DNA of 64,000 nt. Source: Rhodothermales bacterium (lineage in GTDB: Bacteria; Bacteroidota; Rhodothermia; Rhodothermales; BA12). The DNA lies in contig CAWJEJ010000004.1 in assembly GCA_963841855.1 (NCBI GenBank), positions 588,455 through 652,454 on the forward strand, read 5' to 3'. Shown here one piece after another: positions 3,036 to 41,150 of the stretch (within the stretch, counting starts at the first letter, position 1; every line of letters begins with the position of its first letter). The notes under the pieces are model-generated. The model saw only the letters and a program-made list of their open reading frames with translations, was not told the DNA's origin and did not search any database. Both the position numbers and the translations under genes were made by a program.

Positions 3036-3077
3036 CCGACCTGCGTATCTTGCCCAAACAGCATCCAGCCGGTATCT

Positions 3078-3503
3078 ATGGGACGCATCGTAGGCAACGT
3101 CGACACGCCCGCCAAGCGCCGCAACGCGCACCTGCGCTCGTGCGCCGAAGTCGTCCGCCTGCTCGCCCAGCGCGCCGAGATGGGATCCGAAGAGCGCGAC
3201 ATGGCGGCGTTTCTCGTCTTCAGCTTGAGAGGCATCTGGACGACGATCGACGAGAGCGCCCAGGTCTGGGACGAGCGCGACTATTGGAAAAAGTCCGAAG
3301 CGCTCCGCCACAAATGGCGCTGGACCCGGACGCAAGCCGACACCATCGAGCAGATCCTCCGCGCCGACACGCTCAGCGCCCTGCCCGTCCCCCTGATCGA
3401 ACTCGTCGGCCATCTGGGCGACGTGACCGTGACCCAAATCACGCGCGACTCGGACTGGTGGGTCGGCGCCTACCGCGCGCTGATGAAGCAGCAGGCGGCG
3501 TGA
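3078..3503 (+). CDS. hypothetical protein
   Basis: 141 aa ORF with balanced, non-shadow composition (WDERDYWKKSEALRHKWRW). No family recognised. Confidence 0.5.
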   Translation: MGRIVGNVDTPAKRRNAHLRSCAEVVRLLAQRAEMGSEERDMAAFLVFSLRGIWTTIDESAQVWDERDYWKKSEALRHKWRWTRTQADTIEQILRADTLSALPVPLIELVGHLGDVTVTQITRDSDWWVGAYRALMKQQAA

Positions 3504-3537
3504 AGTGAGCGTGCTTGGCGTCCTGAAACGAGCGGGT

Positions 3538-4317
3538 TTACTCGCTGCTGAACCCGATGCCGAAGCCGAAGCCGCTGAACGTGCCTTCGAAGTCGCCGGT
3601 CGGGTCGGTGCGGTGGTCGTAGAAGTAGCGCGCGACGAGGGCAGGGCGCAGCCAGCCTGCGATGGCTTTCTCTCCGCTGAGGCGCAGCGACAGGTCGCTC
3701 ATGATTTTGAGCGAGGTGGCATCGAAATTTTCTCCATCGAACGTGCGCGCCTGGGTGACGGTCGTGAGGATGCCAAGGCGCAGCGCAGGAATTTCCAGAG
3801 CGTGGGCGGCCTGTATGCCCATGTCGATGCCGCCCACCGGAGAACCCTGCTGCTCGCTGTTCGCCCCGGCCCCGCTGATGAGCCCACCGATGCCGATGGC
3901 ACCAAGGACAGGGAGCCCCACCATCAGCCCGCCCTCGGCACGAGGTAGGATTGCACCGTCCAAGTAAAGCCATCCCTTACCGTTTTCGCGGCCGTTGAGA
4001 AACTCGGTTCCCGTATCGCAGTCGACTATCGCACACCACGCCTGTTGCAGCGTGCCCGTCACATCGATGCGGACGTACTGGTAGATTTGGTCACCTCCGA
4101 CACCCATCACATAGCCGCCGAGCGTATACGGCGCGTTCGTTCCGCTGCTCGTAATGGCCTGACCGGGAGTGGTGTAGGTAACGTCGTGCGAGATGAACTC
4201 GAACGGAAGGCCAACGAGGACGAGCGACTGGGGAGCACGCGGCATGAACCCGCCGCTCTGGGCGGACGCGACGGCGGGAAGGAGGACGAACAGAATCGAG
4301 GCGAGGAGAGCGCGCAT
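3538..4317 (-). CDS. secreted / outer-membrane hypothetical protein
   Basis: Signal peptide MRALLASILFVLLPAVASAQ followed by Gly-rich beta-type sequence. Lies 27 nt downstream of the giant T9SS protein gene on the same strand. Confidence 0.6.
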   Translation of the reverse strand: MRALLASILFVLLPAVASAQSGGFMPRAPQSLVLVGLPFEFISHDVTYTTPGQAITSSGTNAPYTLGGYVMGVGGDQIYQYVRIDVTGTLQQAWCAIVDCDTGTEFLNGRENGKGWLYLDGAILPRAEGGLMVGLPVLGAIGIGGLISGAGANSEQQGSPVGGIDMGIQAAHALEIPALRLGILTTVTQARTFDGENFDATSLKIMSDLSLRLSGEKAIAGWLRPALVARYFYDHRTDPTGDFEGTFSGFGFGIGFSSE

Positions 4318-4343
4318 GTGCTGGAGAGGTGAGGATGAGAGAT

Positions 4344-7300: not shown

Positions 7301-8609
7301 TGAACGGCACGATGACGCCCTGCGGATAGCCCGGCGGCAGTGCGAGGAACGACTGCGATCCGTTGCGCGGCGAATCCACAAACGCAACCGCCCGAGCACC
7401 GCGCGCATCGCCTGCCCGCAGCAGCGGGTTGCCGACCGAAGCGGGCGTCGAAACCGTCAGGGTGCCGTCCGTCGACGCGTACTTGCGGACACCGACCGAG
7501 AACGTGTAGACACTTCCGGCGTCGGCCGAAAGGGCGAGGGTGTTGAAGCCATTTTCTTCGCCCGTGTTGCTCGCCCAGCGAAAAGCGCCTTGGGCCGAGA
7601 TCGATCCGAGGAATGCTTTGCTGCTATTGGTGCGACGCAGCGTGACTTCCGTCGGTTTGGATGGATCGAGCGCAACGCCCCAGAAGTCGTTGGACGAGGT
7701 CAAGCCGCCGCCCAGATATACGTCCCCGGCGGCATCGACCGTCATCGCATCCGGCGTGTCGCCGCCGACGGTCGGAGCGAAGCGCCACGTTTCGCTACCA
7801 TTCGAGGCATCGTGCCGGGCCAGCGTGTAGCCCCTGCGCCCCGTAATGTCGAGCGCGCTGAGCACGTAGATGCTGCCGCCTCCGGCCGCTAGCTGCGTGG
7901 CCCGAACCGCAGGCACGACGTATTCGACCGATCCGTCGGCGATACTCAGCGCCACGAGAGACGGCTGGTTGACCGCGACGCTGTCCGCCGTCAGGTCGAC
8001 GTCCTGCGCGCCCAGAATAGAGAGGTAGAGTCGCTGTCCATCCGAGGCGAACGGTTGCCCGATGACGAGCAGTTGCGAGTCGCTGGTGAGCGCCTGCTGA
8101 CCACCCCACTCGAGCGCGCCCGTCGCCCCGTCGAAGCGCGCCGTGAAGCCCGCCGCTCCCGCATTCGGCCCTGCCAAGCCGCGCCCGACCATCAGCGTCG
8201 CCGCCGACGGGTCGAGGTCCATCGTAGCGCCGGTCGAGAGTAACCCCTGAATCGCCACGTCGCCGTCCGGCAGGACTGCGATCAGCGTTTTGGGCGCGCC
8301 GGACTCGGCTCCGACGAAACTGAGCGCCACAAACTTGTGCGCCCACGTCAGCGCGCCCGACGCGTCGTAGCGCGCCACGAACGTCGCTCCGTTGGGCGAA
8401 GTCGTTTTGAGCGCTGCCAGCGCCGCCGTAGCGCTGAGCGCGAGCGAGTCGTCGAATACGCCAGTGACGTAGAAGCTGCCGTCGGCGGCGAGCCGGATGT
8501 CGGTAATCTCGACGCCTCCCCCCTCAAGTGCAGCGACGGGGACGGGGTATTGGGCGTAGGCAGGCGTGGCGAGAATGAGCAGGCCGAAGAGGACGGAGAG
8601 GCGGCGCAT
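4344..8609 (-). CDS. giant secreted FG-GAP/VCBS-repeat, FN3-like and IPT-domain protein with T9SS C-terminal sorting domain
   Basis: 1421 aa uninterrupted ORF with signal peptide MRRLSVLFGLLILATPAYAQ. Repeated DxNGDGxxDL / DFDGDGxxD motifs (FG-GAP/VCBS) and an IPT-like segment ISAVSPSSVVAGESITVDGTGF. C-terminus LTLYDLMGRRVALLADRTLAAGPQHASLDAGSLAAGTYLLVLEHDG is typical of the T9SS type-A CTD. Confidence 0.85.
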   Translation of the reverse strand: MRRLSVLFGLLILATPAYAQYPVPVAALEGGGVEITDIRLAADGSFYVTGVFDDSLALSATAALAALKTTSPNGATFVARYDASGALTWAHKFVALSFVGAESGAPKTLIAVLPDGDVAIQGLLSTGATMDLDPSAATLMVGRGLAGPNAGAAGFTARFDGATGALEWGGQQALTSDSQLLVIGQPFASDGQRLYLSILGAQDVDLTADSVAVNQPSLVALSIADGSVEYVVPAVRATQLAAGGGSIYVLSALDITGRRGYTLARHDASNGSETWRFAPTVGGDTPDAMTVDAAGDVYLGGGLTSSNDFWGVALDPSKPTEVTLRRTNSSKAFLGSISAQGAFRWASNTGEENGFNTLALSADAGSVYTFSVGVRKYASTDGTLTVSTPASVGNPLLRAGDARGARAVAFVDSPRNGSQSFLALPPGYPQGVIVPFNTSDLALGGLSPVTPPAAPTQIRPMAGTDVPYRGVRFSWTPVAGATGYDVTIASSPQSFTQRFSLADTFKVTNLQGSRTYTWSVRARVGVIAGAETPGIAITTQPEPPNIAAPTITSPTQGQTGIAFDPGIRVEWNAVAGADGYTLLLERGIPVPNSVGVFDFFPILSDTVRGGSVTSTVLTSPLITGATTYQLRMFSTQGGREGARASFVRFATFDDANLPKPTILTPTAGSPTRSGPIAALWTSVRSAQRYSVTVETRNSFAADYAARYVTSDTSFVVPPVQTRPNNRVHLSVRAINNRGQEGEAATVDWIAGTPTLTAPALTAAVTGASATFSWTNVAEAFRYHIEVNTSAAFDSTSIVRVGGTGDGSLTLRRLPAGASLFARVRATAGLMAGPWSSGVPFSTGAADAGVTISAVSPSSVVAGESITVDGTGFAADAKAFVGLVEGEITAQSATQLTVRVPRGVIAGRVRVASGGSAADGPLVRVSRTQTYPFNPDGITGRDTLFSTRNTNRNNRWDVADMNGDGKVDLMRLDQITNVLVFPALANGNGWGQPATAQGYVAANYQSDFLQSTMRHDFDGDGRLDIAIALFRRDESGLITISLNRSSGDTLAFAPGVQLEFESAPAGMNAVDLNGDGRDELIVVLRKGEIVAMENLSGPGALRFGKRASWPYNSRLFSQSDVALWDADFDGDGKVDLAYSRFNSAGPLVVTMRNAGASDLSASSFAVDSVQFTGSLFLDAVGDVDGDGKADLVGKGAYTSDDFTQQELVVLRNTSTAGSLGAGSFGAPERQTVVSSDLRGLQLVDLNGDGVLDLAGTIRDSNTGGTDLMIFRGGTGGLGAQTRFLNADLAFATDLDADGQVELYSSTFQQEGFTYGLARLDLSTVATSTEADVSTLALTLGGTWPHPATGVSSVPFALPTAGHARLTLYDLMGRRVALLADRTLAAGPQHASLDAGSLAAGTYLLVLEHDGSRVAKTVVVLGR

Positions 8610-8730
8610 GGGCGTGGCGGAAAGATTCGCCTGTACGCTACCTCAGCGCCTGCCTGCCGCGCGTCCCCGGATTCGGGTATTTGCGGCGCTTCGATCTCTT
8701 GCGCTATCCGATGCCCTGGCGTTTGCCTCC

Positions 8731-8778
8731 GTCGCGATGATCGCGACGCTACTCGTGGGATGTATCGCGACGCTACTC
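8731..8778. promoter_or_regulatory. cluster of three ATCGCGAC half-sites (one palindrome plus a 15-bp direct repeat), candidate regulator binding site
   Basis: GTCGCGAT-G-ATCGCGAC palindrome at 8731-8747. ATCGCGACGCTACTC occurs twice (8740-8754 and 8764-8778, 24-nt period). Located about 120-170 nt upstream of the 4344..8609 gene start. Confidence 0.35.
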
Positions 8779-8794
8779 CGTTCGGTCGGGCTTT

Positions 8795-9166
8795 TTATCC
8801 ATCCGTTCGAAACGTGACTTCGGCCCTATCGGTCGTGCCGCCGACGGGCGGGTTGGGCTTGCGAACCGTCACTTCGGCCCAGAGCGCGTCGGGATAGAGT
8901 TCGTGCGCGCCGGTCGCGATCAGGTAGGCGAGGCGTTCGATCAGGTAGAAGCGGTTCTCCATTACCGTGCGCTTGGCCAAGGCGTACAGCTTTTCGTAGT
9001 CGACGGTTCGGCTCAGGTCGTCGTTCCGCGCGGCTTCGGCAAACCGGCTGGAGGGCAGACCGACGGCCACGTCGACCTCGAAGCGGCCACCGATGGCGTG
9101 TTCTTCCTTCATGACGCCGTGGTGGGCGTAGAAGGCGGCGTTGACCAGGCGAACGGTAGCGGGCAT
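8795..9166 (-). CDS. folB: dihydroneopterin aldolase
   Basis: MPATVRLVNAAFYAHHGVMKEEHAIGGRFEVDVAV...DYEKLY...LIERLAYLIA matches the FolB pattern. ATG at 9166 is preferred; alternative ATGs at 9187 and 9268 add an Arg-rich extension. Confidence 0.85.
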   Translation of the reverse strand: MPATVRLVNAAFYAHHGVMKEEHAIGGRFEVDVAVGLPSSRFAEAARNDDLSRTVDYEKLYALAKRTVMENRFYLIERLAYLIATGAHELYPDALWAEVTVRKPNPPVGGTTDRAEVTFRTDG

Positions 9167-9469
9167 GACGAGTGGGGTTGGGTCCATGGAGGCGCTGCGC
9201 CTCTGGGGCGCCGAACGCTCGCGGCCGGTGCGGCGTGCGTAGGTAAGCAGCTTGAAAAGTAGCGCCAAGGCTGGGCAGAACGGGCGTCACGCCTGAGTGC
9301 TCGTCGGATCGGGCGGGCGAGCCGCGAAGCGAGCGGAGTGCGGTGCGAGCCGGTCGGCAACGGCAAGATAATTGGATCCCAGTCCGTGCGTGGCAATCGC
9401 ATTTTCACAGCGTAGAGCGGTTCGTTCCGTTATCTACGACTCTGCCTTCCGACCCGCCACAGTTCCACC

Positions 9470-10519
9470 GTGTCCCTCGTTTCCCACCTCCGCGCGATCC
9501 CGTCCGCTGCCGGCTACTATGGCAAAGGGATTCTCAAGGAGATCGAGACCAAAGACATCTTCGTCTTCAGCCAGGCGATCGCGTTCAAGGTGCTCGTCAC
9601 CATCGTGCCGCTGCTCGTGCTCGCGACGGGTATCATCGGCCGCTTCCTCAAGCAAGACGAGCCGTTCGAGGTCGTCGAGGGGGTCGTGCGCGACTTGCTG
9701 CCGGGCGGGCAGAGCGAGCAGATCCTGTCGTTTCTGCGCGATTTGCAGAGCGCCTCGGGCACGATCACCATCGTCGGCATCTTGGGCACGCTCGTCGCCG
9801 TGATCACGCTGATGACGACGCTGAGAGCCGTCGTGCGGGGCATCTTCGCCGAAGCCTACCGCGACGCGCGCAGCCTTCTGGGCGGCTACGCCTTCGACGC
9901 GCGGATGGTGGTGCAGGTCGGCGCGCTGTTTCTGCTCTCGATCTCGATCACAGTCGCCTCGCAGTGGCTGAGCGGAACGGGTGAGGACGTGATCCGCTGG
10001 TACGCGCTCGACTGGGAGTGGCTGTTTCAAGGGTGGAGCGTGCTCTTCACCGTCGTCGGGCTGGTCCTGCCGCTATTCGTGACGACGGCCATGTTCGGCC
10101 AGTTGTACTACTTCGTGCCGCGCCCGCGCCCGCCCAAACGCAGCGTCGTGCGGGGCGCGCTGGTGGCCGCCACGCTATGGGAAGCCGCCAAATACGCATT
10201 CGCTCTCTACGCGACGCACGTCGCCGGCTTCGACCTGGGCAGCACGTTCGGACTGATCCTGGCCTTCGGATTCTGGATCTACTACTCCGGCCTAGTGCTG
10301 TGCATCGGCGCGCTGATCGCCCTGATCGACGAGAAGCGGCTCCGCGCCGAGCAGAGCGACCGAGCGCAGGCCGAAGAGCAAGGCGCCGACTCGCTCACGC
10401 CGGACGGTAAAAAACTCGCGCATACGCCGATGCCCGTCCTTCCCGGCGACGACTCGGACGTTGCTCCTGCCACGCCGGACGATCCGTCTACCGGTCAGCC
10501 CTCTCGCACCAACGTTTAG
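9470..10519 (+). CDS. YihY/BrkB (virulence factor BrkB) family inner-membrane protein
   Basis: GTG start. FSQAIAFKVLVTIVPLLVL plus multiple TM helices is characteristic of the YihY family. Acidic and Pro-rich C-terminal tail. Confidence 0.85.
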   Translation: MSLVSHLRAIPSAAGYYGKGILKEIETKDIFVFSQAIAFKVLVTIVPLLVLATGIIGRFLKQDEPFEVVEGVVRDLLPGGQSEQILSFLRDLQSASGTITIVGILGTLVAVITLMTTLRAVVRGIFAEAYRDARSLLGGYAFDARMVVQVGALFLLSISITVASQWLSGTGEDVIRWYALDWEWLFQGWSVLFTVVGLVLPLFVTTAMFGQLYYFVPRPRPPKRSVVRGALVAATLWEAAKYAFALYATHVAGFDLGSTFGLILAFGFWIYYSGLVLCIGALIALIDEKRLRAEQSDRAQAEEQGADSLTPDGKKLAHTPMPVLPGDDSDVAPATPDDPSTGQPSRTNV

Positions 10520-29728: not shown

Positions 29729-31024
29729 TCACCCCAACCCGACACGCTCGAAAATCTCGTCGACGCGGCGCGTGTGGTAGGTGGGATCGAAGAGCGCGTC
29801 GATTTGCTCTTCGGTCAAGTGTTCGCGGATGTCGTCCGCTGCCAGGACGAGTGGCTGGAACGGCTCGCCATTGGTCCACGCTTGCATGGCGCGCGGCTGG
29901 ACGCGGTCGTAGGCGTCCTCCCTACTCAGCCCGGCCTCGACCAGGGCGAGCATCACGCGTTGGCTGTTGTGCAGACCGTACGTGCGGTCCATGTTGGCGC
30001 GCATGGCGTCGGGGAAGACCGTCAGGTTGTCCAGGATGCTCGTCATCCGCGTCAGCGCGTAGTGGCAGACGGTCGTGGCGTCGGGCAGGATGACGCGCTC
30101 GACCGACGAGTGGCTGATGTCGCGCTCGTGCCACAGCGCCACGTTCTCGTACGCGCTCACCATGTAGCCCCGCAGCAGTCGGCTCATGCCGGTCACGTTT
30201 TCGCTTCCGATCGGGTTGCGCTTGTGCGGCATCGCCGACGATCCCTTTTGCCCCGCCCGAAATGCCTCTTCGGCCTCGCGCACTTCGGACCGCTGCAAGT
30301 GACGCACCTCGACGGCCATCTTTTCCAAACTCGCTCCGATGCCCGCCAGCGTCGACATGTAGAAGGCGTGACGATCGCGCTGCAGTGTCTGGGTCGAGAT
30401 CGGCGCGGCGGCGAGGCCCAGGCGTTCGCACGTCAGGCGTTCCACCTCGGGCGGCGTGTGGGCGAACGTGCCGACGGCTCCGCTCAGCTTACCCACTTCG
30501 ACGCCCTTGGCCGCCAGTTCGAAGCGTTCGATTTGGCGTTCGATTTCGGCGTAGTAGAGCGCCAGCACCAGCCCAAACGTCGTCGGTTCGGCGTGGACGC
30601 CGTGCGTTCTTCCCATCATCAGCGTCGTCTTGTGCTCGACTGCACGCCGGGCCAGCACGCCCCGCATAGCGTGCAGCGCCTCGCGGATCAAGCCGTTGGC
30701 CTTCTTGAGCCGGACGCCCCACGCCGTATCGACCACATCCGTCGAGGTCAAACCGTAGTGAATCCACTTGCGCTCGTCGCCCAGCGTTTCGCTGACGGCG
30801 CGCGTAAAGGCGACCACGTCGTGCCGCGTCTCCCGCTCAATCTCGGCGATGCGCTCCATGCTGAACGACGCCTTTTCGTACAACGCGTCGATATCGGCAG
30901 CCGGAATCGCGCCGATCTGCGACCATCCCCAGCAAGCCGCCAGTTCCACGTCGAGCCACGCGTCGAACTGCCCCTTCTCACTCCACAGATCGGTCATTTC
31001 GGGACGGGAGTAGCGGTCGATCAT
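29729..31024 (-). CDS. purB: adenylosuccinate lyase
   Basis: 431 aa with MIDRYSRPEMTDLWSEKGQFDAWLDVELA, GLTSTDVVDTA and GSSAMPHKRNPIGSEN (fumarate-lyase signature). Confidence 0.97.
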   Translation of the reverse strand: MIDRYSRPEMTDLWSEKGQFDAWLDVELAACWGWSQIGAIPAADIDALYEKASFSMERIAEIERETRHDVVAFTRAVSETLGDERKWIHYGLTSTDVVDTAWGVRLKKANGLIREALHAMRGVLARRAVEHKTTLMMGRTHGVHAEPTTFGLVLALYYAEIERQIERFELAAKGVEVGKLSGAVGTFAHTPPEVERLTCERLGLAAAPISTQTLQRDRHAFYMSTLAGIGASLEKMAVEVRHLQRSEVREAEEAFRAGQKGSSAMPHKRNPIGSENVTGMSRLLRGYMVSAYENVALWHERDISHSSVERVILPDATTVCHYALTRMTSILDNLTVFPDAMRANMDRTYGLHNSQRVMLALVEAGLSREDAYDRVQPRAMQAWTNGEPFQPLVLAADDIREHLTEEQIDALFDPTYHTRRVDEIFERVGLG

Positions 31025-31068
31025 GGCGCGTCGGCGGTTGGGTGAAGAGGAAAGGTACCGGCGAGCAA
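30905..31068. repeat. direct repeat copy A (functional purB codons 1-40 plus ~45 bp upstream)
   Basis: Aligns with 31859-32022. About 110 of the first 120 positions are identical by manual alignment. Homology continues more weakly through TTGGGTGAA...AAAGGTACCGG. Confidence 0.8.
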
Positions 31069-31185
31069 GGCATCCGATAGCGAAAGGCTGTGGGATTCAT
31101 GCGCCCCCGCGACACGGCACACGATGGGAACCTGGTAGCACACACCTCGTGCTATGCAGGCGTCGCCACGCATACACATATTCTC

Positions 31186-31479
31186 ATGATTCGAACGTTT
31201 GCCGATACGGCGACGCTTGACCTGTTCAACGGAGCGCCCACCAAAGCCGCTCGCAAACGCCTTCCTGTCTCACTTCATGTCCAGACGAGCCGGAAGCTTG
31301 ATCTCCTCAACGCTGCTGCTTCGGTCGAAGACTTGCGAACTCCGCCGGGCAATCGGCTGGAAGTGCTAAAGGGCGACCGGGCCGGCCAACACTCCATCCG
31401 TATCAACCAGCAATACCGTATCTGCTTCGAGTGGACGCGTGAAGGTCCGTGCCAAGTTGAAGTCGTCGATTACCACTAA
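31186..31479 (+). CDS. higB: HigB-family type II toxin (RelE superfamily)
   Basis: MIRTFADTATLDLFNG...DLRTPPGNRLEVLKGDRAGQHSIRINQQYRICFEWTREGPCQVEVVDYH is a near-consensus HigB sequence. Toxin-first order is typical of higBA. Confidence 0.9.
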   Translation: MIRTFADTATLDLFNGAPTKAARKRLPVSLHVQTSRKLDLLNAAASVEDLRTPPGNRLEVLKGDRAGQHSIRINQQYRICFEWTREGPCQVEVVDYH

Positions 31480-31788
31480 ATGATGATTCGTCTACCTACC
31501 CACCGTCCTCCCACGCTTCCCGGCGAGATGCTCCGAGCCGAGTTTCTCGATCCGATGAGGCTGTCGCAAGCCGAGGCTGCGCGCGCGATGGGCATGCCGT
31601 TTCAGCGGCTCAACGCTGTCGTTCAGGGCCGCAGATCCGTCACGCCGTCGACGGCCTTACGGCTGGCGCGCTACCTGGGTACGACACCAGAGTTGTGGCT
31701 CAATCTGCAACGCAACGTCGACCTGTATCATGCGATAAGGGAAGAGGGTGCGGCACTCGAATCCATCGTGCCAGTCGAGCACAAGTAG
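31480..31788 (+). CDS. higA: HigA-family antitoxin (XRE-type HTH)
   Basis: PGEMLRAEFLDPMRLSQAEAARAMGMPFQRLNAVVQGRRSVTPSTALRLARYLGTTPELWLNLQ matches the HigA HTH. ATG directly abuts the higB stop. Confidence 0.9.
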   Translation: MMIRLPTHRPPTLPGEMLRAEFLDPMRLSQAEAARAMGMPFQRLNAVVQGRRSVTPSTALRLARYLGTTPELWLNLQRNVDLYHAIREEGAALESIVPVEHK

Positions 31789-31849: not shown

Positions 31850-31978
31850 TTACTCTGAAATCGCGCCGATCTGCGACCAACCCCAGCACGCCGCCAGTTC
31901 CACGTCGAGCCACGCGTCGAACTGCCCGCGCTCGCTCCACAAGTCGGTCATTTCGGGGCGAGAGTAGCGGTCGATCAT
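31850..31978 (-). pseudogene. orphan duplicate of the purB 5' end (42 codons then stop)
   Basis: Minus-strand ATG at 31978 gives MIDRYSRPEMTDLWSERGQFDAWLDVELAACWGWSQIGAISE*, nearly identical to the purB N-terminus. Similarity stops abruptly at 31858. Confidence 0.85.
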
Positions 31979-32022
31979 CGGTTCAGCAGCTTGGGTGAAC
32001 CGCAAAGGTACCGGAAACCCAG
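31859..32022. repeat. direct repeat copy B (truncated purB 5' end plus upstream sequence)
   Basis: Partner of 30905-31068. See the pseudogene entry. Confidence 0.8.
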
Positions 32023-32174
32023 GTGAGCAAAACGCAAAAACCGGACAGATCGAAGAGGTCTGATCGGTCGGAATTGTTCAAGCGGTGAGCTGAGAGCAGT
32101 GTTGGGATCCAAGGGAATCGATCGAGCCGAGACTGCTTGCCAGCGCGCCGGAAGTCGATCAGACCCTGCCGGTG

Positions 32175-34840: not shown

Positions 34841-34847
34841 GAGACTT

Positions 34848-34891
34848 CGCCCGCTCACCCACTGGTGACCGCTCACCAGCGAGACTGTGTT
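34848..34891 (+). repeat. partial (3'-half) copy of the attC-like repeat at the left edge of the cassette array
   Basis: GCCCGCTCACCC (12/12), CACCAG and CTGTGTT occur in the same order and similar spacing as in the 3' halves of the full repeats. Confidence 0.4.
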
Positions 34892-34910
34892 CGACCCCTT
34901 GCTCACGAAT

Positions 34911-35261
34911 ATGTATTGGGTGCTCGTCTCCGCTCCCATCTTGGTCGGTCTCGTAGGCGCTGTATTTGCCCAAAGGGCTTACGTACGTGGCGCATTTGAC
35001 GCCGCTGCCTTCCGCCTGCTGCTTGCGGCAGTGACCGCGGCGGTCGTGGGAGTGAGCGGCATTTGGTACAACGGCGTCAGTTCGCTTGGCGACACGGATG
35101 AGGTCGGTTTCATAATGGGCCATGGTTCACCTGCCCTTCTCGCTGAGGGGTGGCACGTCGGTATGCGTTTCTCACCTGTCGGCGCTTCCGTCGCAATCGT
35201 GCTCGCCGTAGCTGGAATGATGATTTGGACCAAGCACACTTCTTCACTCCGCGCGGTGTAA
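34911..35261 (+). CDS. cassette ORF: small 3-TM membrane protein, hypothetical
   Basis: MYWVLVSAPILVGLVGAVF... with three hydrophobic helices. The stop TAA is the TAA of the repeat core gtgTAAc. A GTG at 34887 is an alternative start. Confidence 0.45.
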   Translation: MYWVLVSAPILVGLVGAVFAQRAYVRGAFDAAAFRLLLAAVTAAVVGVSGIWYNGVSSLGDTDEVGFIMGHGSPALLAEGWHVGMRFSPVGASVAIVLAVAGMMIWTKHTSSLRAV

Positions 35262-35376
35262 CCCACGGCTGCGGGCGACGCAAAGGCGGGCGGTTTTGCT
35301 CTGCGTCAGGTGCGGCGATCACATTGCCCGCTCACCCTTCGGCGCGGTTTGCGCACCAGAGTTTTATCTGTAATGC
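35255..35376 (+). repeat. attC-like structured repeat, copy 1
   Basis: GGTGTAACCCACGGCTGCGGGCGACGCAAAGG...TTTGCGCACCAGAGTTTTATCTGTAATGC. Alignable over its full length with copies 2 and 3. Confidence 0.6.
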
Positions 35377-35436
35377 GGCTTGCCGAACCGTGTCGGCAAG
35401 ACAGAGTTGGGAGGAGCTCAACCAGTCGCCAAACCA

Positions 35437-35637
35437 ATGAGCGTCCAGCAACTAGAAACGGCTGTCGTAGAACTCAGCGAAAACGAACTGTCTCGGTTCG
35501 GCCAGTGGTTTGATGAGTACCGCGCCGAAGCATGGGATCGTCAGATTGAGCGTGACGCACAGTCAGGCCGACTCGACGCCCTCATCTCCGAGGCGCAGGC
35601 TGACATTGCCGCCGGTCGCGTCCGCGAGACTCCGTGA
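35437..35637 (+). CDS. type II antitoxin (partner of the RelE/ParE-like toxin)
   Basis: 66 aa with LSENELSRFGQWFDEYRAEAWDRQIERDAQSGRLDALISEA, a pattern I recall from antitoxins paired with this toxin type. GTGA overlap with the toxin gene. Confidence 0.6.
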   Translation: MSVQQLETAVVELSENELSRFGQWFDEYRAEAWDRQIERDAQSGRLDALISEAQADIAAGRVRETP

Positions 35638-35900
35638 GGCACCAAACAACTGCTGCCTTCTGGTCGCGCTTTGACAAACTGGACTCTTCGGTTCAGCGAC
35701 TCGCACGCAAGAACTATGCGCTGCTCGAAGCGGACGAGCGTCATCCATCGCTGCATTTCAAGAAGCTCGCCGGTACATCTCCGCGGTTGTGGTCAGTTCG
35801 AGTAGGAATAGATCATCGTGCTCTCGGCATTGAGGAGGGCGATGCCATCTTCTGGTTCTGGATCGGTCCGCATGACGAATACGACCGTCTCACGGATTGA
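35634..35900 (+). CDS. RelE/ParE-superfamily type II toxin
   Basis: FWSRFDKL...HPSLHFKKLAGTSPRLWSVRVGIDHRALGIEEGDAIFWFWIGPHDEYDRL fits the RelE/ParE-like toxin pattern (HPSLxFKKL...SVRI...YRA...WFWIGxHxxYD). Confidence 0.75.
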   Translation: MRHQTTAAFWSRFDKLDSSVQRLARKNYALLEADERHPSLHFKKLAGTSPRLWSVRVGIDHRALGIEEGDAIFWFWIGPHDEYDRLTD

Positions 35901-35904
35901 AGAC

Positions 35905-36025
35905 GGCATAACCCACGGTTGCGGGCGACGCAAAGGCGGGCTGTCTTGCTCTGCGTCAGATGCGGCGATTACATTGCTCGCTCACCCTTCGGCGTGATTG
36001 CGCGCCAGATCCTCGTCTGTTATGC
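35905..36025 (+). repeat. attC-like structured repeat, copy 2
   Basis: GGCATAACCCACGGTTGCGGGCGACGCAAAGG...ATTGCGCGCCAGATCCTCGTCTGTTATGC. Terminal 7-mers GCATAAC / GTTATGC are perfect inverted repeats. Confidence 0.65.
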
Positions 36026-36432
36026 CGCTTAGCGAGGCTGAGGTACACGAGCGCGCCTTCGTCAAGGCTTTCGCTGCTCCTAATCGCCGCGAACGATACC
36101 TCGGGCTGCTCAGCACCAGTAAAGGACGGCGCAAGTTCGTGGCGGGACTCCATCATAACCTCGACCTTGACTCCCGCTATGCCGAGCGCTTGGATGCCGG
36201 ACACAACCGAGAGGAAATCGAAGCAATCATAACACGCGCGCTGGGCGCAGATTCAGAGTGTTGGCTCATCTCAGATTACCCGGAGTTGGACGGAAAGCGG
36301 CTTCTTCTCGGTGAGGCGCTTCGAGCTATTTCTGGCTACGGCGGAGGTACAATCATCTCCTGCGTGGCGGGCAAGTCGGCGTATTACGAGGGCGAGGATC
36401 GCGGAGCGAGGCTCATCTGTCGTAGGAAGTAG
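36022..36432 (+). CDS. cassette ORF: hypothetical protein (136 aa)
   Basis: The ATG lies inside the distal repeat core GTTATGC. MPLSEAEVHERAFVKAFAAPNRRERYLGLLSTSKGRRKF... has balanced composition. No family recognised. Confidence 0.5.
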   Translation: MPLSEAEVHERAFVKAFAAPNRRERYLGLLSTSKGRRKFVAGLHHNLDLDSRYAERLDAGHNREEIEAIITRALGADSECWLISDYPELDGKRLLLGEALRAISGYGGGTIISCVAGKSAYYEGEDRGARLICRRK

Positions 36433-36435
36433 AGC

Positions 36436-36554
36436 GGTGTAACCCAGGGTTGCGGGCGACGCAAAGCTGGGCGGTTTCCGCTATTCGAGTGCGGTGCTAC
36501 ATTGCCCGCTCACACGTCGGCGTGCTTTGCGCGCCAGAGCCTCGTCTGTTCTGC
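36436..36554 (+). repeat. attC-like structured repeat, copy 3
   Basis: GGTGTAACCCAGGGTTGCGGGCGACGCAAAGC...CTTTGCGCGCCAGAGCCTCGTCTGTTCTGC. Starts 4 nt after the preceding stop codon. Confidence 0.6.
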
Positions 36555-36579
36555 AGCGCTACCATCTGACCGCTCAAAT

Positions 36580-37101
36580 ATGGACGACACAATCGGCACG
36601 TGGGCACTAAACGCTTACCGCATGGTCGAGAGTGAGATGGTCCCAACGCTTCCAAGCGAGAAGCGGGCGGCTATCGGCACGTTCCTCGTCGGCGACGACT
36701 TCGACTGTCTAGACGAGTTGGAGTTGGCGCGCGGTCTCCAACTCCGCGTTCTACCCAGCGGCCGGTTCGAGCAGACTGCCGAGCCCGCCTTCGACCGAAC
36801 GATGATCGACTTCGAGGGTGCTACCACGTCCCTCGGTTCTCCGGACTTCGTGGTGGCATTCGACGGGCGGCTGATCCGCGTTGGGTCTCGACTGTACCTC
36901 CATCCCGATGACGCCCCAGCACGGAGCACCTCGGAAGGGCGGTGGGTCGAAGCGCAGCTGCTGAGGTACGACGATGGCGACACGGTTGTGTGCGAGTGGA
37001 TCGAGAAGCGAGGGACATCGCTGTTTCGCACCGCGTCAATGGTGACGGACGAAGCCTACCTGAGTCGCCTGACGCTCCGGTACGAGAGGAAACGAGCGTG
37101 A
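36580..37101 (+). CDS. cassette ORF: hypothetical protein (173 aa)
   Basis: MDDTIGTWALNAYRMVESEMVPTLPSEKRAAIGTFLVGDDFDCLDELELARGL... has acidic, balanced composition. No family recognised. Track start at 36502 lies inside the repeat and is rejected. Confidence 0.5.
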   Translation: MDDTIGTWALNAYRMVESEMVPTLPSEKRAAIGTFLVGDDFDCLDELELARGLQLRVLPSGRFEQTAEPAFDRTMIDFEGATTSLGSPDFVVAFDGRLIRVGSRLYLHPDDAPARSTSEGRWVEAQLLRYDDGDTVVCEWIEKRGTSLFRTASMVTDEAYLSRLTLRYERKRA

Positions 37102-37260
37102 GGCATGGCCCGGCGCCGCAGAACCCGGCGCCGCAGGCCGACCCAGAGCGTCAGCGTTCGTGGCTCGCGCAGGCTTTGGCATATTCTGCCTCTCGTCCCA
37201 CACACCAGTCCTCAATTCTGGGAGCCAGAGCCTCTTCTGCCAGGCGCCTCGTCTTGCTGC
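37102..37260 (+). repeat. degenerate copy of the attC-like repeat
   Basis: Starts GGCATGGCCCGG (compare GGCATAACCCACGG) directly after the stop at 37101. Ends CCAGAGCCTCTTCTGCCAGGCGCCTCGTCTTGCTGC (compare CCAGAGCCTCGTCTGTTCTGC). The core TAAC/GTT positions are mutated. Confidence 0.3.
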
Positions 37261-37297
37261 TCTTCTTGTCATTCGGAGTGGATTGTGAGCAAGTCTA

Positions 37298-37522
37298 ATG
37301 ATCAGCCAGTCAGCGTTCCCGAGGTTTCGACCCGAACGCGAGCCGGAGCTTGAACCAGATACTATCCCCGAGTCTGCGTCAGCAGTCGAGCGCCAAGAAC
37401 CTGTGACCCGAGCGCTCACGTCGGACGCGGTAGCCGTGCCTGACGCTGTCCTGCTTCGCTCGATGCCGACCACGCTTTCTGAGTGGCACGAGCAGTACGG
37501 CGCGTTCGCCGCCAACCCATGA
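37298..37522 (+). CDS. possible small cassette ORF, hypothetical
   Basis: 74 aa acidic ORF (EPELEPDTIPESASAVERQEP...LSEWHEQYGAFAANP) on the same strand as the cassettes. No homology recognised. Confidence 0.25.
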   Translation: MISQSAFPRFRPEREPELEPDTIPESASAVERQEPVTRALTSDAVAVPDAVLLRSMPTTLSEWHEQYGAFAANP

Positions 37523-37683
37523 TACCACGCTCAGCTTCGCGCACTGGGGCAGGCGGCGGCTGGCAATTCGGAGAGAGGATGCCGGTAATGCTGAATTCGA
37601 GCTGGGTGCTGCTCTACGGCACGTTCGTCAACGGAGAGGAGGCTAAAGCCTAATTCTGCTGCGATGACGACAACGACGCCAAT

Positions 37684-37799
37684 CCGTAACCCAGCGCGTC
37701 CCGACTGAGGAGCCGACTGCGAGCGGCCCGCAACGCACTGCGCGGCGTACCGCGAATTGGAGAGCGAGCCGGACGTCGAGGCGGTGGTGCGCTGTTCGA
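37684..37799 (+). repeat. possible sequence-divergent attC-like site
   Basis: CCGTAACCCAGCGC...GCGCTGTTCGAA. TAAC-to-GTT spacing is about 110 nt versus 111-114 nt in copies 1-3. Termini can pair (AACcCAGCGC / GCGCTGTT). Otherwise little sequence identity. Confidence 0.3.
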
Positions 37800-37938
37800 A
37801 TCGTGCGAGGTATACCCGGTAAATGCGGACGGTGCTAGGACTGGCGGTCCGCGCTGATCGGGTGCGGCACTTTTGCTTCAGGCTCGCACCCTGCGCGCTT
37901 ACGTCGAAGCGACGATCACAGATGGCGTCCGCTGATCC

Positions 37939-40464
37939 CTACTGCGCTACCACCACGCGCTGCACCGCTCGAACGTCGCCTGCGGTCATCACGACGAGGT
38001 AGGCTCCGTTTGGCAGGCGGCTCGTGTCGAGCGTCAGTCGGTGCGATCCTGCTGCGGCGATGCCATCGGCTAGAACGGCGACTTCTCTGCCCAGCAGGTC
38101 GTAGACGCGGACCGAAAGGGGTCCCGTTCGGGCGAGTAGGGCGTCGAACGAAGAGAAGCCAGCGGCGGGGTTGGGATGCGGCGCTCCCAGACCAGACGTG
38201 CCAAGTGCCACCGCGCCCTCGCTACCTGTCGGGCGGGCGAACGTGGCGGTGAGCGATGAGGCAGCGCTGAGAACGACCGAGATCGAATCGGACGACGACT
38301 CAGTCTGCCCGGACCAGCCAGCGAAGACATAGCCTTCGTCGGGACGAGCGGTCATCTGCAGCGGCACGTTTCGGAAGAACGGCTCAGAAAACGGCGTACC
38401 ATCGGGCGCGCGCATTAGCTCGACGCCTTCGGCAAACACGCGCCCGCCGTCCGTCGCGCTGACCGTGAGGCGTACCGATCCGCTCACCTCGTCAAACTGC
38501 TGCGCGACGAACGTGCGCATTCTGCTGGGCCGATCGCGCGCGAAGGTGCGCATCACGTTTACCTGGGACTCCCAGCTGGAGCCGAACGAAGCCGACTGCG
38601 TCCACCGCGTCGTGTGGCGCGGCATTTCAGCGGCAATGTTTGCTTGCAGACTGTCGATCACGCTCTCGACGCGTAAGGGCTCGAATGTCGTGCCTATGTG
38701 CGCGGCCATGCGCTGGATAAAGGTGTGGCGAAAGCCGTCGTTTTCGAGCAGTTTGCGAAAGAGGAACGTCGACCACGGCGGGTTGGGCCATGAGGGACCA
38801 TTCGTCGCGGTAGCGAGGGCGAGCGTGTTGCTCGTCGCCAGGCCGCTGCCGTTGCCGCCGAATCCAAAATCCGTGTCGAAGAGCATCCACCGCCAGCGCG
38901 CGCCGTCGGTTAGAGAGCGCCAGAGCTTGAGGTTGTTGCCCGGCCAGTCGGCGTTGGCGCTATAGATCTCGGCGATGAGGTAGGTGATGTACTGGTCCAC
39001 GTCTATCATCCGGCCGACCTGCTCCATGACCGCGGGATCGGCCGGACTGCCGGAGTCCAGCAGATCGAGCAGGCGATCGTAGTGGACGGAGCGCCCACGC
39101 AGCGGCTCTTTCTCGGCGTCGAGAAGCTCGATGTCAGCCTTCTCGACGCCGTAATGGCCTACCACCCAGTCTTCGTTGAGCTTCTCGCGCAAATTGTGGA
39201 TGCCCCAATAGGCGCCGTTGAGAAAGACGATCGTCGGGCGGTAAGCTTGGCCGTCCAGGTCCATGTGGCGGGTGAGCGTTTGGATCATGCCGTCGCGAAA
39301 CATCGTCCGGTACCAGTCTTGGGCCGAGCTTCGGAGCACCAAGTCATCGAAAATGGCCAGATCCAGATCGGCGAAGAAGCGGTGCTCAAACTTCGACGCG
39401 CCATAGACGCTGCGCGCGTGCAGGGCCAGCGACTTCTGCGGATACAGACGGCTGCATCCGCCAAAGATCTTCGCGCCCGCGCCCTGATCGACAGCGAGGT
39501 CGAAGCCTCCATTGCCGTCGGGTTCGAGGAAGCTGAACTGCACCTCGCGCTCCCAATCGCGATTCCAGTTGACCGGGCTGCTGGAACAGCGTCCCGTTTC
39601 TCCGTTCGTACCTCGGACGTAGATGCCCGACGTGTCGCTGAAAAAGCCCGCCGGATCGGTGACGAGCGAGACGACCGGCAGCGTGCTCTGCTCGTCGACG
39701 AAAAACGTGCGCGTCGCGATGGGGCTGGGTGCTCGGTCCGGAGCGAATGCAGCGGCGCGCAGGACCGTCGTCGCCCCGAACGTCAGCGCGGACGAGTAGA
39801 GCGGAGAGGTGGCACTGGGCGGCGATCCGTCGCGTGTGAAGCGAATCGCCGCACCTGCCTCGGCCTGCATCTCGACGGTCACGGACCCGGCGTAGAAGCC
39901 TGTCGCTCGGTCTATCGTCGGAAGCGTCAGCGGAGCGCCCACTCCATCGGACGCGTTGGGTGCGCCGGGCGTCGGGGCCGAGAAGAACGCCCAGGTATCG
40001 GCTCCGTCGGGCGAGCGTCCGTACGAAACGTCGGTCGTCTGCTCGCCATAGGTCAGCGTGTCGACGGGTGCACCGCTGGCGTCGAACAGTCCGACCTGCT
40101 CGCCGCTGCCCGAGAGCTTGAACCCGGTGTGCAGCGCCGTCGCAGCTGGCGGACCGGTGTCCTCGTCGTCGGCCCAGACGATCAGAAAGCCGCGCGCGGG
40201 CACGGTCGTGCCGTCGGGAAACGACCACTTGGCAGGTTTGGAGAGGTTGTCCGTAATCATGAACCCACTCAGATCGGCGTCGGCATCGGACATGTTATAG
40301 AGCTCGATCCAGTCGCCGAAGCCTGCGAAGTCGGGATCAGCGAGCGTGGCCGAGTTGGAAGCCAGAATCTCGTTGATGACGACGCGCTGCGCCTGGACGA
40401 GAGGGGCGGCTATCAGCGAGGCCCAGAGCGCTAAAGTGAGGGCGAACGAACGGTTCATGCGCAA
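37939..40464 (-). CDS. secreted CotH-kinase-family protein with N-terminal lamin-tail domain and T9SS C-terminal sorting domain
   Basis: Signal peptide. LTD (VVINEILASNSATLADPDFAGFGDWIELYN...GFMITDN...GFLIVWAD). CotH core (RPTIVFLNGAYWGIHNLREKLNEDWV, YITYLIAEIYSANADWPGNNLKLWR). CTD LSVRVYDLLGREVAVLADG...LPNGAYLVVM. Confidence 0.85.
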   Translation of the reverse strand: MRMNRSFALTLALWASLIAAPLVQAQRVVINEILASNSATLADPDFAGFGDWIELYNMSDADADLSGFMITDNLSKPAKWSFPDGTTVPARGFLIVWADDEDTGPPAATALHTGFKLSGSGEQVGLFDASGAPVDTLTYGEQTTDVSYGRSPDGADTWAFFSAPTPGAPNASDGVGAPLTLPTIDRATGFYAGSVTVEMQAEAGAAIRFTRDGSPPSATSPLYSSALTFGATTVLRAAAFAPDRAPSPIATRTFFVDEQSTLPVVSLVTDPAGFFSDTSGIYVRGTNGETGRCSSSPVNWNRDWEREVQFSFLEPDGNGGFDLAVDQGAGAKIFGGCSRLYPQKSLALHARSVYGASKFEHRFFADLDLAIFDDLVLRSSAQDWYRTMFRDGMIQTLTRHMDLDGQAYRPTIVFLNGAYWGIHNLREKLNEDWVVGHYGVEKADIELLDAEKEPLRGRSVHYDRLLDLLDSGSPADPAVMEQVGRMIDVDQYITYLIAEIYSANADWPGNNLKLWRSLTDGARWRWMLFDTDFGFGGNGSGLATSNTLALATATNGPSWPNPPWSTFLFRKLLENDGFRHTFIQRMAAHIGTTFEPLRVESVIDSLQANIAAEMPRHTTRWTQSASFGSSWESQVNVMRTFARDRPSRMRTFVAQQFDEVSGSVRLTVSATDGGRVFAEGVELMRAPDGTPFSEPFFRNVPLQMTARPDEGYVFAGWSGQTESSSDSISVVLSAASSLTATFARPTGSEGAVALGTSGLGAPHPNPAAGFSSFDALLARTGPLSVRVYDLLGREVAVLADGIAAAGSHRLTLDTSRLPNGAYLVVMTAGDVRAVQRVVVAQ

Positions 40465-40577
40465 GAGTAGCGACGGCGAGAGGAGAGCGGTAGATACGAT
40501 ACACTCAAATCTGCGATCTGCCGAGCAAAAGTCGGTGCGAAGCGTTGTCTCTGGCCTGCTCTATTTTCCTCCCCGAT

Positions 40578-41150
40578 ATGATCGACCGCACGGCCCGCCT
40601 CACCGCTTTCGCTTCGATGGGCGCTCTGAGCCTCATGCAGGACCTGTCGCGCCAGGTGATGCAGTCGATCCCGACGGCCGACCCCGAAGTCGTCGCCGAG
40701 GAGACGCTGGCTCTGGTCGCCGTCTCCACGGCACGGGCGGCTGGCGTGGGCTTGCAGGCGCTTCCCGACGCGGCGCAGGCGGCAGCGGGCGCACTTTCGG
40801 CCCTGCCCTACCTCTACCGCGATTACCTGATCGGCGGCGCGGTCTTGGCGCAGAACGACCCTGAACTGGTGCAGGCCGCCCAGGAGACGCAGGCGCGGCT
40901 CGAACGCAAGATGGCGTTCTACAGCCTGCATCTGCCCGACGGACAGTTTCCCGGTCCGCGCGCGCTGGCCGACAAGCTTCCGCTGTGGATGGGGCGCGTC
41001 AGCGGACCCGGCTTGCCGACGACGCCTGACGAGCGGCTTGCCCAGCTGGGTGTGGCGGATCTGGTCCTGACGCACCTCAAACTCGTGCTCGGCATGGCGC
41101 GGCAGGAAGCGTCCGACGCCGTCGCCGCATCCGGCCTCTCCGATGCGTGA
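40578..41150 (+). CDS. hypothetical protein
   Basis: 190 aa Ala/Leu-rich helical ORF. Overlaps the next gene start by 8 nt. No family recognised. Confidence 0.4.
   Translation: MIDRTARLTAFASMGALSLMQDLSRQVMQSIPTADPEVVAEETLALVAVSTARAAGVGLQALPDAAQAAAGALSALPYLYRDYLIGGAVLAQNDPELVQAAQETQARLERKMAFYSLHLPDGQFPGPRALADKLPLWMGRVSGPGLPTTPDERLAQLGVADLVLTHLKLVLGMARQEASDAVAASGLSDA

Follow-up and report, generated by a model that had tools for sequence, protein, structure and literature searches.

A small, partly decayed integron cassette array downstream of floA in a Rhodothermales chromosome

A small, partly decayed integron cassette array with four attC sites is present in a Rhodothermales chromosome, within the 64-kb stretch of DNA analyzed here (from this point on, the window). 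Its four gene cassettes all lie on the plus strand, each closed by an attC of about 125 nt. Three strong attC sites and one degenerate site are clustered in 2 kb, and the window has no intI, which places the region among CALINs, defined by at least two clustered attC sites. As no integrase occurs in the window and the array sits in a 5.7-kb insertion, the element is treated as a CALIN, very probably one composed of a lineage-specific attC family from the sedentary chromosomal integrons of uncultured Rhodothermales. Family membership was judged by a family-specific covariance model built here together with genomic context. A preliminary description of this DNA had proposed an integron-like array with attC-like repeats, and the proposal is borne out by the occurrence of the same repeat family beside IntI genes in four related genomes and by a G|TT signature at cassette boundaries.

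The upstream edge of the array lies 4 nt past the floA stop codon and begins with a truncated attC rather than an attI. This tentative feature (34844-34886, plus strand; ACTTCGCCCGCTCACCC...CACCAG...CTGTGTT), probably what is left of an attC's 3' portion, had been described as a 3' half-copy and is weakly confirmed. The window has just two occurrences of the 12-mer GCCCGCTCACCC, one in the remnant and one in attC copy 1, as against 0.02 expected; neither nhmmer nor the covariance model detects the remnant, and in local alignment it does not rise above background. Cassette 1 (34911-35261) encodes a hydrophobic protein of 116 aa from its ATG, or 124 aa from a GTG at 34887, with no family match, and its TAA stop lies inside the R'' box (GTGTAAC, 35256-35262) of attC 1. 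That site (35253-35380; covariance model 119.1 bits, nhmmer 107-135 bits) has L'' GGCG-A-CGCAAAG and R' GTAATGC (35370-35376). Cassette 2 had been read as a toxin-antitoxin pair, and the toxin half of that reading holds: the ORF at 35634-35900 encodes an 88 aa ParE-like protein (Pfam PF24732 ParE_like, E 4.7e-8, 33.4 bits versus a cutoff of 24.4). The 66 aa product of the ORF immediately upstream (35437-35637), which matches no family, is a putative antitoxin by virtue only of its size and the 4-nt overlap of its stop with the toxin start. The best-preserved site, attC 2 (35903-36029; 124.7 bits), follows with R'' GCATAAC (35906-35912) and R' GTTATGC (36019-36025); the ATG within this R' box is the start codon of cassette 3 (36022-36432, 136 aa, no family), as had been noted along with the stop codon inside GTGTAAC. 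The array continues with attC 3 (36434-36558; 105.8 bits; R'' GTGTAAC, 36437-36443, and R' GTTCTGC, 36548-36554), cassette 4 (36580-37101, 173 aa, no family) and the degenerate attC 4 (37115-37249), which retains the AAC of R'' (GCAGAAC) but has eroded L boxes and no longer has the GTT of R' (CTGCCAGG). The plus-strand tail of the region (37250-37938) has no recognizable attC and a single called ORF, a small one (37298-37522, 74 aa); it may represent a final cassette whose attC has been lost, or filler with no relation to the array. As first described, the ORFs are short and run in one direction, and GC content is 58-62% in the array as against 64-68% in the flanks.

The three full repeats of the preliminary description were recovered with slightly different limits, those given above for attC 1 to 3. 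Each of the two conserved motifs has exactly three exact matches in the window, against 0.00 and 0.03 expected by chance. A covariance model (R1) built from the family returned these three strong copies, for which its scores are circular, and one weak copy. The weak copy is attC 4, the degenerate copy anticipated earlier, and is visible by nhmmer (E 2.8e-4) and by local alignment (score 67 versus a background maximum of 55), with 20.6 bits and an E-value of about 0.006 under the covariance model. The model finds no further copies outside the array on either strand of the window. One candidate was dropped: the possible divergent copy at 37684-37799 scores only 31-33, which is below the background 95th percentile of 42, and has no covariance-model match. 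Rfam, which has no attC family, returned nothing relevant at gathering or permissive thresholds. A CRISPR-like reading fails on inspection, with repeats of ~125 nt and spacers that are whole ORFs.

The repeats have the architecture of attC sites. Their length, 123-128 nt, falls within the attC range of 57-141 nt, and conservation is lowest in the central 50-60 nt. The outer core boxes follow the R''/R' patterns RYYYAAC and GTTRRRY with AAC and GTT conserved, and the family consensus, GCATAAC ... GTTATGC, is identical to the outer cores already reported for copy 2. The AAC is invariant in 43/43 copies, and a structure count finds pairs involving the three GTT positions kept in 37-40 of 42 distinct rows. 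Within the window, both AAC and GTT are present in attC 2 and attC 3; attC 1 has AAC with GTA, and attC 4 has AAC without GTT. The inner pair, GGCG-A-CGCAAAG / CTTTGCG-CGCC, also forms the imperfect inverted repeat of L'' and L', with candidate extrahelical bases on the '' arm. Helix 3, which contains this stem, is 97.6% paired, and the unpaired A described for it (A26) is invariant across the family. In a 3-versus-2 internal loop the extra base is likewise on the 5' (top-strand) arm, a polarity that agrees with the direction of the ORFs. Across the family alignment 88% of cells are paired, compared with 25-47% when partners are slid. The conserved hairpin that the preliminary description had called for is thus present, with one clean compensatory pair, 31-105, which changes from A-T to G-C in 3 sequences and is broken in none. 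Covariation is otherwise sparse and not significant in a shuffle control, because the family is highly conserved. Single-copy folding is less informative: attC 2 folds as a closed hairpin on both strands, the folding energies of the window copies are unexceptional (z +0.7 to -1.8), and minimum-energy structures from single-sequence DNA folding differ between them. The structural case is therefore one of family-level conservation, not thermodynamics.

Further copies and an intI gene had been suggested as things to look for in relatives, and both exist. An exact-pattern scan of 185,579 species genomes matched 8 stretches, all from Rhodothermales MAGs and all arrayed, in which nhmmer identifies 44 copies; a metagenome scan added a single extra copy. 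In these MAGs the copies form arrays of a single orientation, up to about 40 copies long, at a conserved chromosomal locus; mean mutual identity among the ~125-nt sites is about 79%, and one MAG array also holds a ParE cassette. In four of the genomes (L003, L009, L012 and L016) the array adjoins a divergently transcribed integron integrase, as in a complete integron, which is defined by an intI within about 4 kb of the attC array plus attI and Pc and which the window does not contain. To illustrate, the integrase at L003:2831-3871 scores 393.6 bits against TIGR02249 (cutoff 265), aligns end to end with VchIntIA (PDB 2A3V; E 5e-78), IntI-specific insertion included, and lies 590 nt from the first attC, facing away from it. 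The cognate integrases are 58-100% identical, and IntI relatives annotated as Salinivenus are among their homologues at 56% identity. The closest IntI homologues are from other samples, and exact-protein look-ups aimed at the source genome or its integrase returned only short Logan contigs of run ERR12040027, interrupted at the attC repeats; the ParE-like ORF with the limits used here has no record. Searches of the related arrays with the window's own cassette proteins gave no matches: the arrays have no cassette content in common with the window.

The related arrays also retain a record of how their cassettes were joined. In the MAG arrays, the 6 nt located 5' of TAAC pair with the start of the same cassette, which lies in the preceding attC. 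Complementarity averages 5.36/6 for the cassette's own ends versus 3.82/6 for the site in place, and pairing is perfect for 21/33 own-cassette comparisons as opposed to 3/33 against the 3' end of the same site (p<1e-5; 0/100,000 permutations reached the observed value). This swapped complementarity is the footprint of crossover at G|TT. In the window, own-cassette complementarity is 4/6 each, for two or three cassettes only.

In two related genomes (L013 and L014), blastn shows the 5.7-kb segment to be absent: the gene directly after floA is homologous to the window gene at 40578-41150. The array, together with a minus-strand cotH/T9SS gene (37939-40464; CotH and FloA identified by Pfam), is accordingly a 5.7-kb insertion (34841-40577) between the core gene floA and its usual neighbor. 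One possible origin is an integrase-mediated cassette insertion at a non-att site, the attG or 5'-GWT-3' route of SALINs and small CALINs, followed by attC x attC insertions, instead of a decayed or translocated integron fragment. The array is small, occupies a core-gene intergenic spot with no transposase nearby and is absent from relatives, active-looking integrons in the lineage could supply IntI in trans, and the route has been shown experimentally in E. coli (bioRxiv 10.1101/2022.09.11.507474). Such an insertion, however, predicts a clean left junction (genome-G|TT-cassette). The left edge instead consists of about 40 nt of internal attC sequence (the variable and L' regions), which an IntI crossover could not produce. 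At the right edge the sequence is degenerate, the 2.5-kb opposite-strand cotH within the insertion has no attC, and the original insertion junctions are not recoverable, so that we regard this route as rather unlikely.

It is very improbable that the array forms the far end of a complete integron with an integrase lying outside the preliminary description's field of view, and for the 64-kb window this is already refuted. Complete integrons with this attC family do exist in related genomes, and integrons are often split in assemblies (PMC9024848). Nevertheless, no IntI-like protein is encoded in the 34.8 kb upstream or the 26 kb downstream, and the earlier remark that no integrase was in view holds for any IntI-like tyrosine recombinase across all 64 kb (best tblastn E 0.77 with the cognate IntI). 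The array moreover abuts floA with a truncated attC first, has cotH and a conserved gene as its downstream boundary, and lacks intI, attI and a Pc promoter; nothing in the window matches the sequences that flank the conserved integron locus in L007, L012 and L003. To read the repeats as elements unrelated to integrons, whether REP/MITE-like or of a regulatory intergenic kind (terminators or sRNA genes), is scarcely credible, for although they are GC-rich imperfect palindromes directly after stop codons with unremarkable folding energies, no single copies are scattered on either strand of the 64 kb, all public-genome matches lie in one-orientation arrays next to IntI genes, no Rfam family matches them and a REP/MITE model leaves the boundary-swap complementarity unexplained.

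For the CALIN reading, the established integron model offers a mechanism. The bottom strand of each attC would fold into a hairpin joining the R box (xxATAAC/GTTATxx) with the L box (GGCT..GGCG-A-CGCAAAG versus CTTTGCG-CGCC..AGCC), its extra bases all predicted on the '' arm. IntI would cut the bottom-strand AAC between A and C, equivalent to top-strand G|TT, and each cassette could be excised as a circle and then reinserted. The window attC sites are putative substrates, present or past, of an IntI acting in trans. The array is nonetheless eroding, as evidenced by the truncated upstream attC, the GTA for GTT in attC 1 and the degenerate attC 4. To judge from their core boxes, attC 1 is probably impaired, since its conserved GTT is mutated to GTA, and attC 4 is presumably inactive. 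Only attC 2 and attC 3 look competent, and only cassette 3 (36020-36548) is therefore plausibly still excisable. The ParE-type toxin-antitoxin cassette probably stabilizes the array. Promoter-like sites inside the array number only 0-1, with no plus-strand terminator-like site. The cassettes appear promoterless, and their expression would depend on floA read-through, as no terminator-like site separates floA from them. A bolder proposal, which we offer tentatively and consider doubtful, is that the array is not a dying integron; it would be an off-platform colony that a trans-acting IntI founded with cassettes from the lineage's large chromosomal integron, now fixed downstream of the housekeeping gene floA, expressed by read-through and locked in place by the ParE toxin-antitoxin cassette, since the attC upstream of that cassette no longer has its GTT. 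If true, integron cassettes would here have colonized a core-genome locus and become domesticated there, a natural example from outside the Proteobacteria.

Integrons are best known from Proteobacteria. The window array is a new example of an already known kind of element, and it leaves the current picture of integron biology unchanged. The preliminary description gave no earlier case of such arrays in a host of this type; integrons had in fact already been reported in the clade, namely the complete integron of Salinibacter ruber M1 (PMC9024848), and NCBI lists an 'integron integrase [Salinivenus sp.]'. In the IntegronFinder 2.0 survey of complete genomes, the S. ruber M1 element is the only complete integron singled out in Bacteroidetes proper, others being from Chlorobi and Ignavibacteriae (PMC9024848); it is likened to the present case by shared Rhodothermales/Salinibacter lineage within the Bacteroidota-Rhodothermota group, not by sequence. 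CALINs as described in the same work likewise have at least two co-oriented attC sites with cassette ORFs, no intI nearby and signs of degradation, with a mean of about 6 attC per CALIN as compared with 4 in the window array (PMC9024848). The present case differs in that its host is an uncultured, Rubricoccaceae-like member of the Rhodothermales and its origin is traceable to a specific attC family of large chromosomal integrons in sister genomes. SALINs and attG insertions also place cassettes away from any integron platform (bioRxiv 10.1101/2022.09.11.507474), but the window has several cassettes and, at its edge, a truncated attC that the attG mechanism does not predict. The related MAG arrays resemble the Vibrio cholerae superintegron with its VCR repeats, having at least 29-39 cassettes, toxin-antitoxin cassettes, a divergent intI and a conserved locus, whereas the window element lacks the platform (intI, attI and Pc), and the phylum is different. 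Unlike the textbook attC, the sites described here have a different R-L spacing and an L box with a bulged A (bottom-strand T) plus a 3x2 internal loop, not a single extra base.

In sum, this lineage has a well-defined attC family with cognate integrases, large arrays (about 30-40 cassettes) occupying a conserved locus and, elsewhere in a chromosome, a small satellite array; the window and the MAG loci show how CALINs arise. The swapped complementarity marks cassette boundaries directly, which also makes the family a clean natural dataset for work on attC evolution. Several of the MAGs have contig names resembling those of the Microflora Danica survey, and one was assembled from run ERR599365, which we take to be a marine (Tara Oceans) sample.

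The interpretation offered in the preliminary description, an integron cassette array, is supported, and its inventory of repeats is partly confirmed: three copies and a degenerate copy are real, a remnant is probable and one proposed copy is rejected. The full copies, each of about 125 nt, lie on the plus strand at 35253-35380, 35903-36029 and 36434-36558 (attC 1 to 3), and both conserved motifs have three exact matches each in the 64-kb window, against 0.00 and 0.03 in shuffled sequence. Searches with a profile HMM trained on 43 members of the family (nhmmer) and with a covariance model run with filters off both recover these three plus the degenerate fourth at 37115-37249 (attC 4; nhmmer E 2.8e-4; covariance model 20.6 bits, E about 0.006; local alignment score 67 versus a background maximum of 55), and neither finds any further copy in the window, whichever strand is searched. 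At the upstream edge of the array, the 3' half-copy is too short for either model; it is supported through the 12-mer GCCCGCTCACCC, which occurs twice in the whole window (in the half-copy and in copy 1) against 0.02 expected, and is a probable attC remnant. The 'divergent copy' at 37684-37799 scored at background level in local alignment and gave no covariance-model hit, and was discarded as an attC site because it could not be separated from background. As described, the ORFs of the array are short and co-oriented, GC content is 58-62% within the array versus 64-68% outside, the TAA stop of ORF 34911-35261 (cassette 1) sits within GTGTAAC (35256-35262), and the ATG of ORF 36022-36432 (cassette 3) sits within GTTATGC (36019-36025).

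An exact-pattern scan for TAAC-N7-TGCGGGCGACGCAAAG, covering one genome for each of 185,579 species, returned eight stretches, all eight from Rhodothermales MAGs, with up to 10 same-strand matches per 8 kb; nhmmer identifies 44 family copies in them. In the MAG CAWFGU01 (MFD03250.bin.2.54), copies occupy the first 18,243 positions of contig 1 (stretches L008, L010 and L003) and the final 12 kb of contig 15 (L007, L005 and L004). Since the two runs share a strand, they are probably a single array of about 40 cassettes, broken by assembly. Two Logan contigs from run ERR12040027 (L001 and L002) carry window cassettes 3 (36022-36432) and 4 (36580-37101) and have both their start and their end inside attC repeats; such breakpoints show how short-read assembly breaks up these arrays, so that they are easily overlooked.

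The CAWFGU01 array adjoins an integrase gene. An ORF at L003:2831-3871, 590 nt beyond the first attC and divergently transcribed, scores 393.6 bits on the NCBIfam model TIGR02249, 'integron integrase' (cutoff 265), and gives an end-to-end alignment with the integron integrase of Vibrio cholerae (PDB 2A3V, E 5e-78) that covers both the IntI-specific insertion (GV-LP-AL--KYP ... W--FPS ... DP ... RRHH) and the catalytic motifs HxLRH/GH/Y. IntI homologues adjoin the same attC family in three more genomes: a MAG assembled from run ERR599365 (L009, 58% identical to the L003 protein), ERZ25039505 (L012, 77%) and ERZ2772625 (L016, 77%). In L012, a gene for a replication initiator of the Rep3 family (PF01051/PF21205) is found at 8575-9651, 2 kb from intI on a 353-kb contig, and the integron of that genome may be carried by a megaplasmid or chromid. 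The L016 array (2120-8223) includes, between attC sites, an IS110-family transposase and a gene for a 1177-aa PAS/histidine-kinase/receiver protein, which is unusually large or foreign content for a cassette array.

The structure of the repeat was read from alignment A2, comprising 43 copies, whose consensus is GCGGCATAAC-CCTT-GGCT-GCG-GGCG-A-CGCAAAGG ... TTTGCG-CGCC-AG-AGCC-TTGTCT-GTTATGCCGC, in which a short spacer that stays unpaired separates an R box from an L-box stem. This stem has its extra bases, namely a bulged A that never varies and a 3-versus-2 internal loop, entirely on the coding-strand 5' arm. This agrees with the general architecture of known attC sites, in which the extra bases are likewise on the '' arm of the bottom strand, here the coding-strand 5' arm. 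A conserved hairpin is borne out, with 88% of cells paired versus 25-47% once the partners are shifted by 1-3 columns. In three copies pair 31-105 reads G-C in place of A-T, and no copy breaks it; conservation at the other positions is too high for covariation statistics, and the single-copy folding energies of the window repeats are unremarkable.

If the integrase crosses over at G|TT, the bases that follow the G of an R' box come with the next cassette. The resulting prediction, that the 6 nt 5' of TAAC are complementary to the preceding attC at its 3' end and not to their own, was tested on 33 adjacent pairs from two MAG arrays. On average, 5.36 of the 6 positions form Watson-Crick pairs with the preceding attC versus 3.82 with the own attC, and pairing is perfect in 21 of 33 cases versus 3 of 33; random pairs drawn from all 43 copies, those of the window included, average 4.10. 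The complementarity is spread over many hexamers (GATGCA/TGCATC, TACGTA/TACGTA and ACCGCA/TGCGGT, for example), and 100,000 permutations gave no value as high as the observed one. The cassettes of the MAG integrons have therefore been exchanged at exactly G|TT, the sole explanation for this swapped complementarity. The repeats make up the attC family of integrons that look functional. The R' consensus, GTTATGC, also contains an ATG, placed where each cassette has its first codon; the ORF of window cassette 3 begins at this ATG, and the frame so opened runs for at least 60 aa in 9 of 25 cassettes of the MAG arrays L003-L010. The attC may thus routinely supply the start codon.

No IntI-like protein is encoded in the 64-kb window (best tblastn E 0.77), and the array begins 4 nt past the floA stop codon (FloA in Pfam, E 4e-151). 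In L013, the closest available relative (floA 87% identical in DNA, with shared epimerase-moaC-floA synteny), and in the Rubricoccaceae MAG L014, the next gene after floA, within about 12-130 nt, is a homologue of window gene 40578-41150. Comparison with the corresponding intervals, L013:8981-9536 and L014:9100-9510, therefore defines window 34841-40577 as a 5.7-kb insertion, which holds the cassette array together with a CotH-family gene on the minus strand (37939-40464) that has a T9SS sorting tail. The MAG integrons are placed differently. Their terminal attC ends in ...TTGTAAGTTG rather than GTTATGC in L007 (7622-7749), L009 (41-165) and L012 (1367-1489). L007 and L012 share 75% identity across 389 nt of distal flank, and the last copy in L006 (1467-1583) is a 77-79% match to these attC-plus-flank junctions across some 160 nt. 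The common terminal attC and flanks place the MAG integron at a conserved chromosomal locus, and suggest that it is probably inherited vertically; L006 has three attC sites at this locus and no IntI within 5 kb. The flanks have no counterpart in the window, so the window array is a satellite at a different locus, and is a CALIN (an attC-site cluster without an integrase) as IntegronFinder defines that class (PMC9024848).

We infer that the window sites were generated by a trans-acting integron integrase like that of the relatives, and that some may still be usable by such an enzyme supplied in trans. That the left edge carries internal attC sequence favours an array fragment that was translocated or truncated, or an integron whose platform was lost, and speaks against the attG route, a clean integrase-mediated insertion of cassettes at a non-att 5'-GWT-3' genomic site (bioRxiv 10.1101/2022.09.11.507474), which we regard as unlikely. 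The insertion junctions are heavily eroded.

Judged from its sequence, the window array is degraded. The upstream attC is truncated, the R' box of attC 1 (35370-35376) reads GTAATGC instead of GTTATGC, which converts the essential GTT to GTA, attC 4 has lost GTT and most of its L boxes, and no attC follows the last small ORF. AAC and GTT are both kept solely in attC 2 and attC 3, which leaves cassette 3 as the one unit that is plausibly mobile. As attC 1 is the upstream bound of the toxin-antitoxin cassette (cassette 2), its GTA mutation would lock this cassette, and hence the array, in place. Cassette 2 encodes a ParE-like toxin (PF24732; 35634-35900) with a small overlapping ORF just upstream (35437-35637), and ParE cassettes are present in the MAG array too; the other window cassette proteins match no Pfam or NCBIfam family and are absent from related arrays. 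A promoter and terminator scan within the array returned one weak promoter-like site and no terminator-like site on the plus strand, so that transcription from floA could continue into the array.

Vibrio offers the classical case of sedentary chromosomal integrons whose attC families are homogeneous and whose cassettes include toxin-antitoxin pairs. CALINs are common, RefSeq containing 2,961 of them with a mean of about 6 attC sites, and Salinibacter ruber M1, of the same broad lineage, is reported to carry a complete integron (PMC9024848); integron integrases from Salinivenus are already named in public annotation. The kind of element is thus known and the attC family is a new example of it, a finding of modest significance. 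Full-text search returned no paper on integron and Rhodothermales together, and the attC family and its large Rhodothermales arrays therefore appear undescribed.

A second toxin-antitoxin module lies 3 kb upstream of the cassette array. A direct repeat of about 165 nt (30905-31070 and 31859-32023, 87-92% identical), which is the duplicated 5' end of the minus-strand adenylosuccinate lyase gene (29729-31024), encloses a HigB toxin (PF05015, E 2e-16) and HTH antitoxin (HTH_3, E 5e-10) pair at 31090-31788, and looks like an insertion of this module with target duplication.
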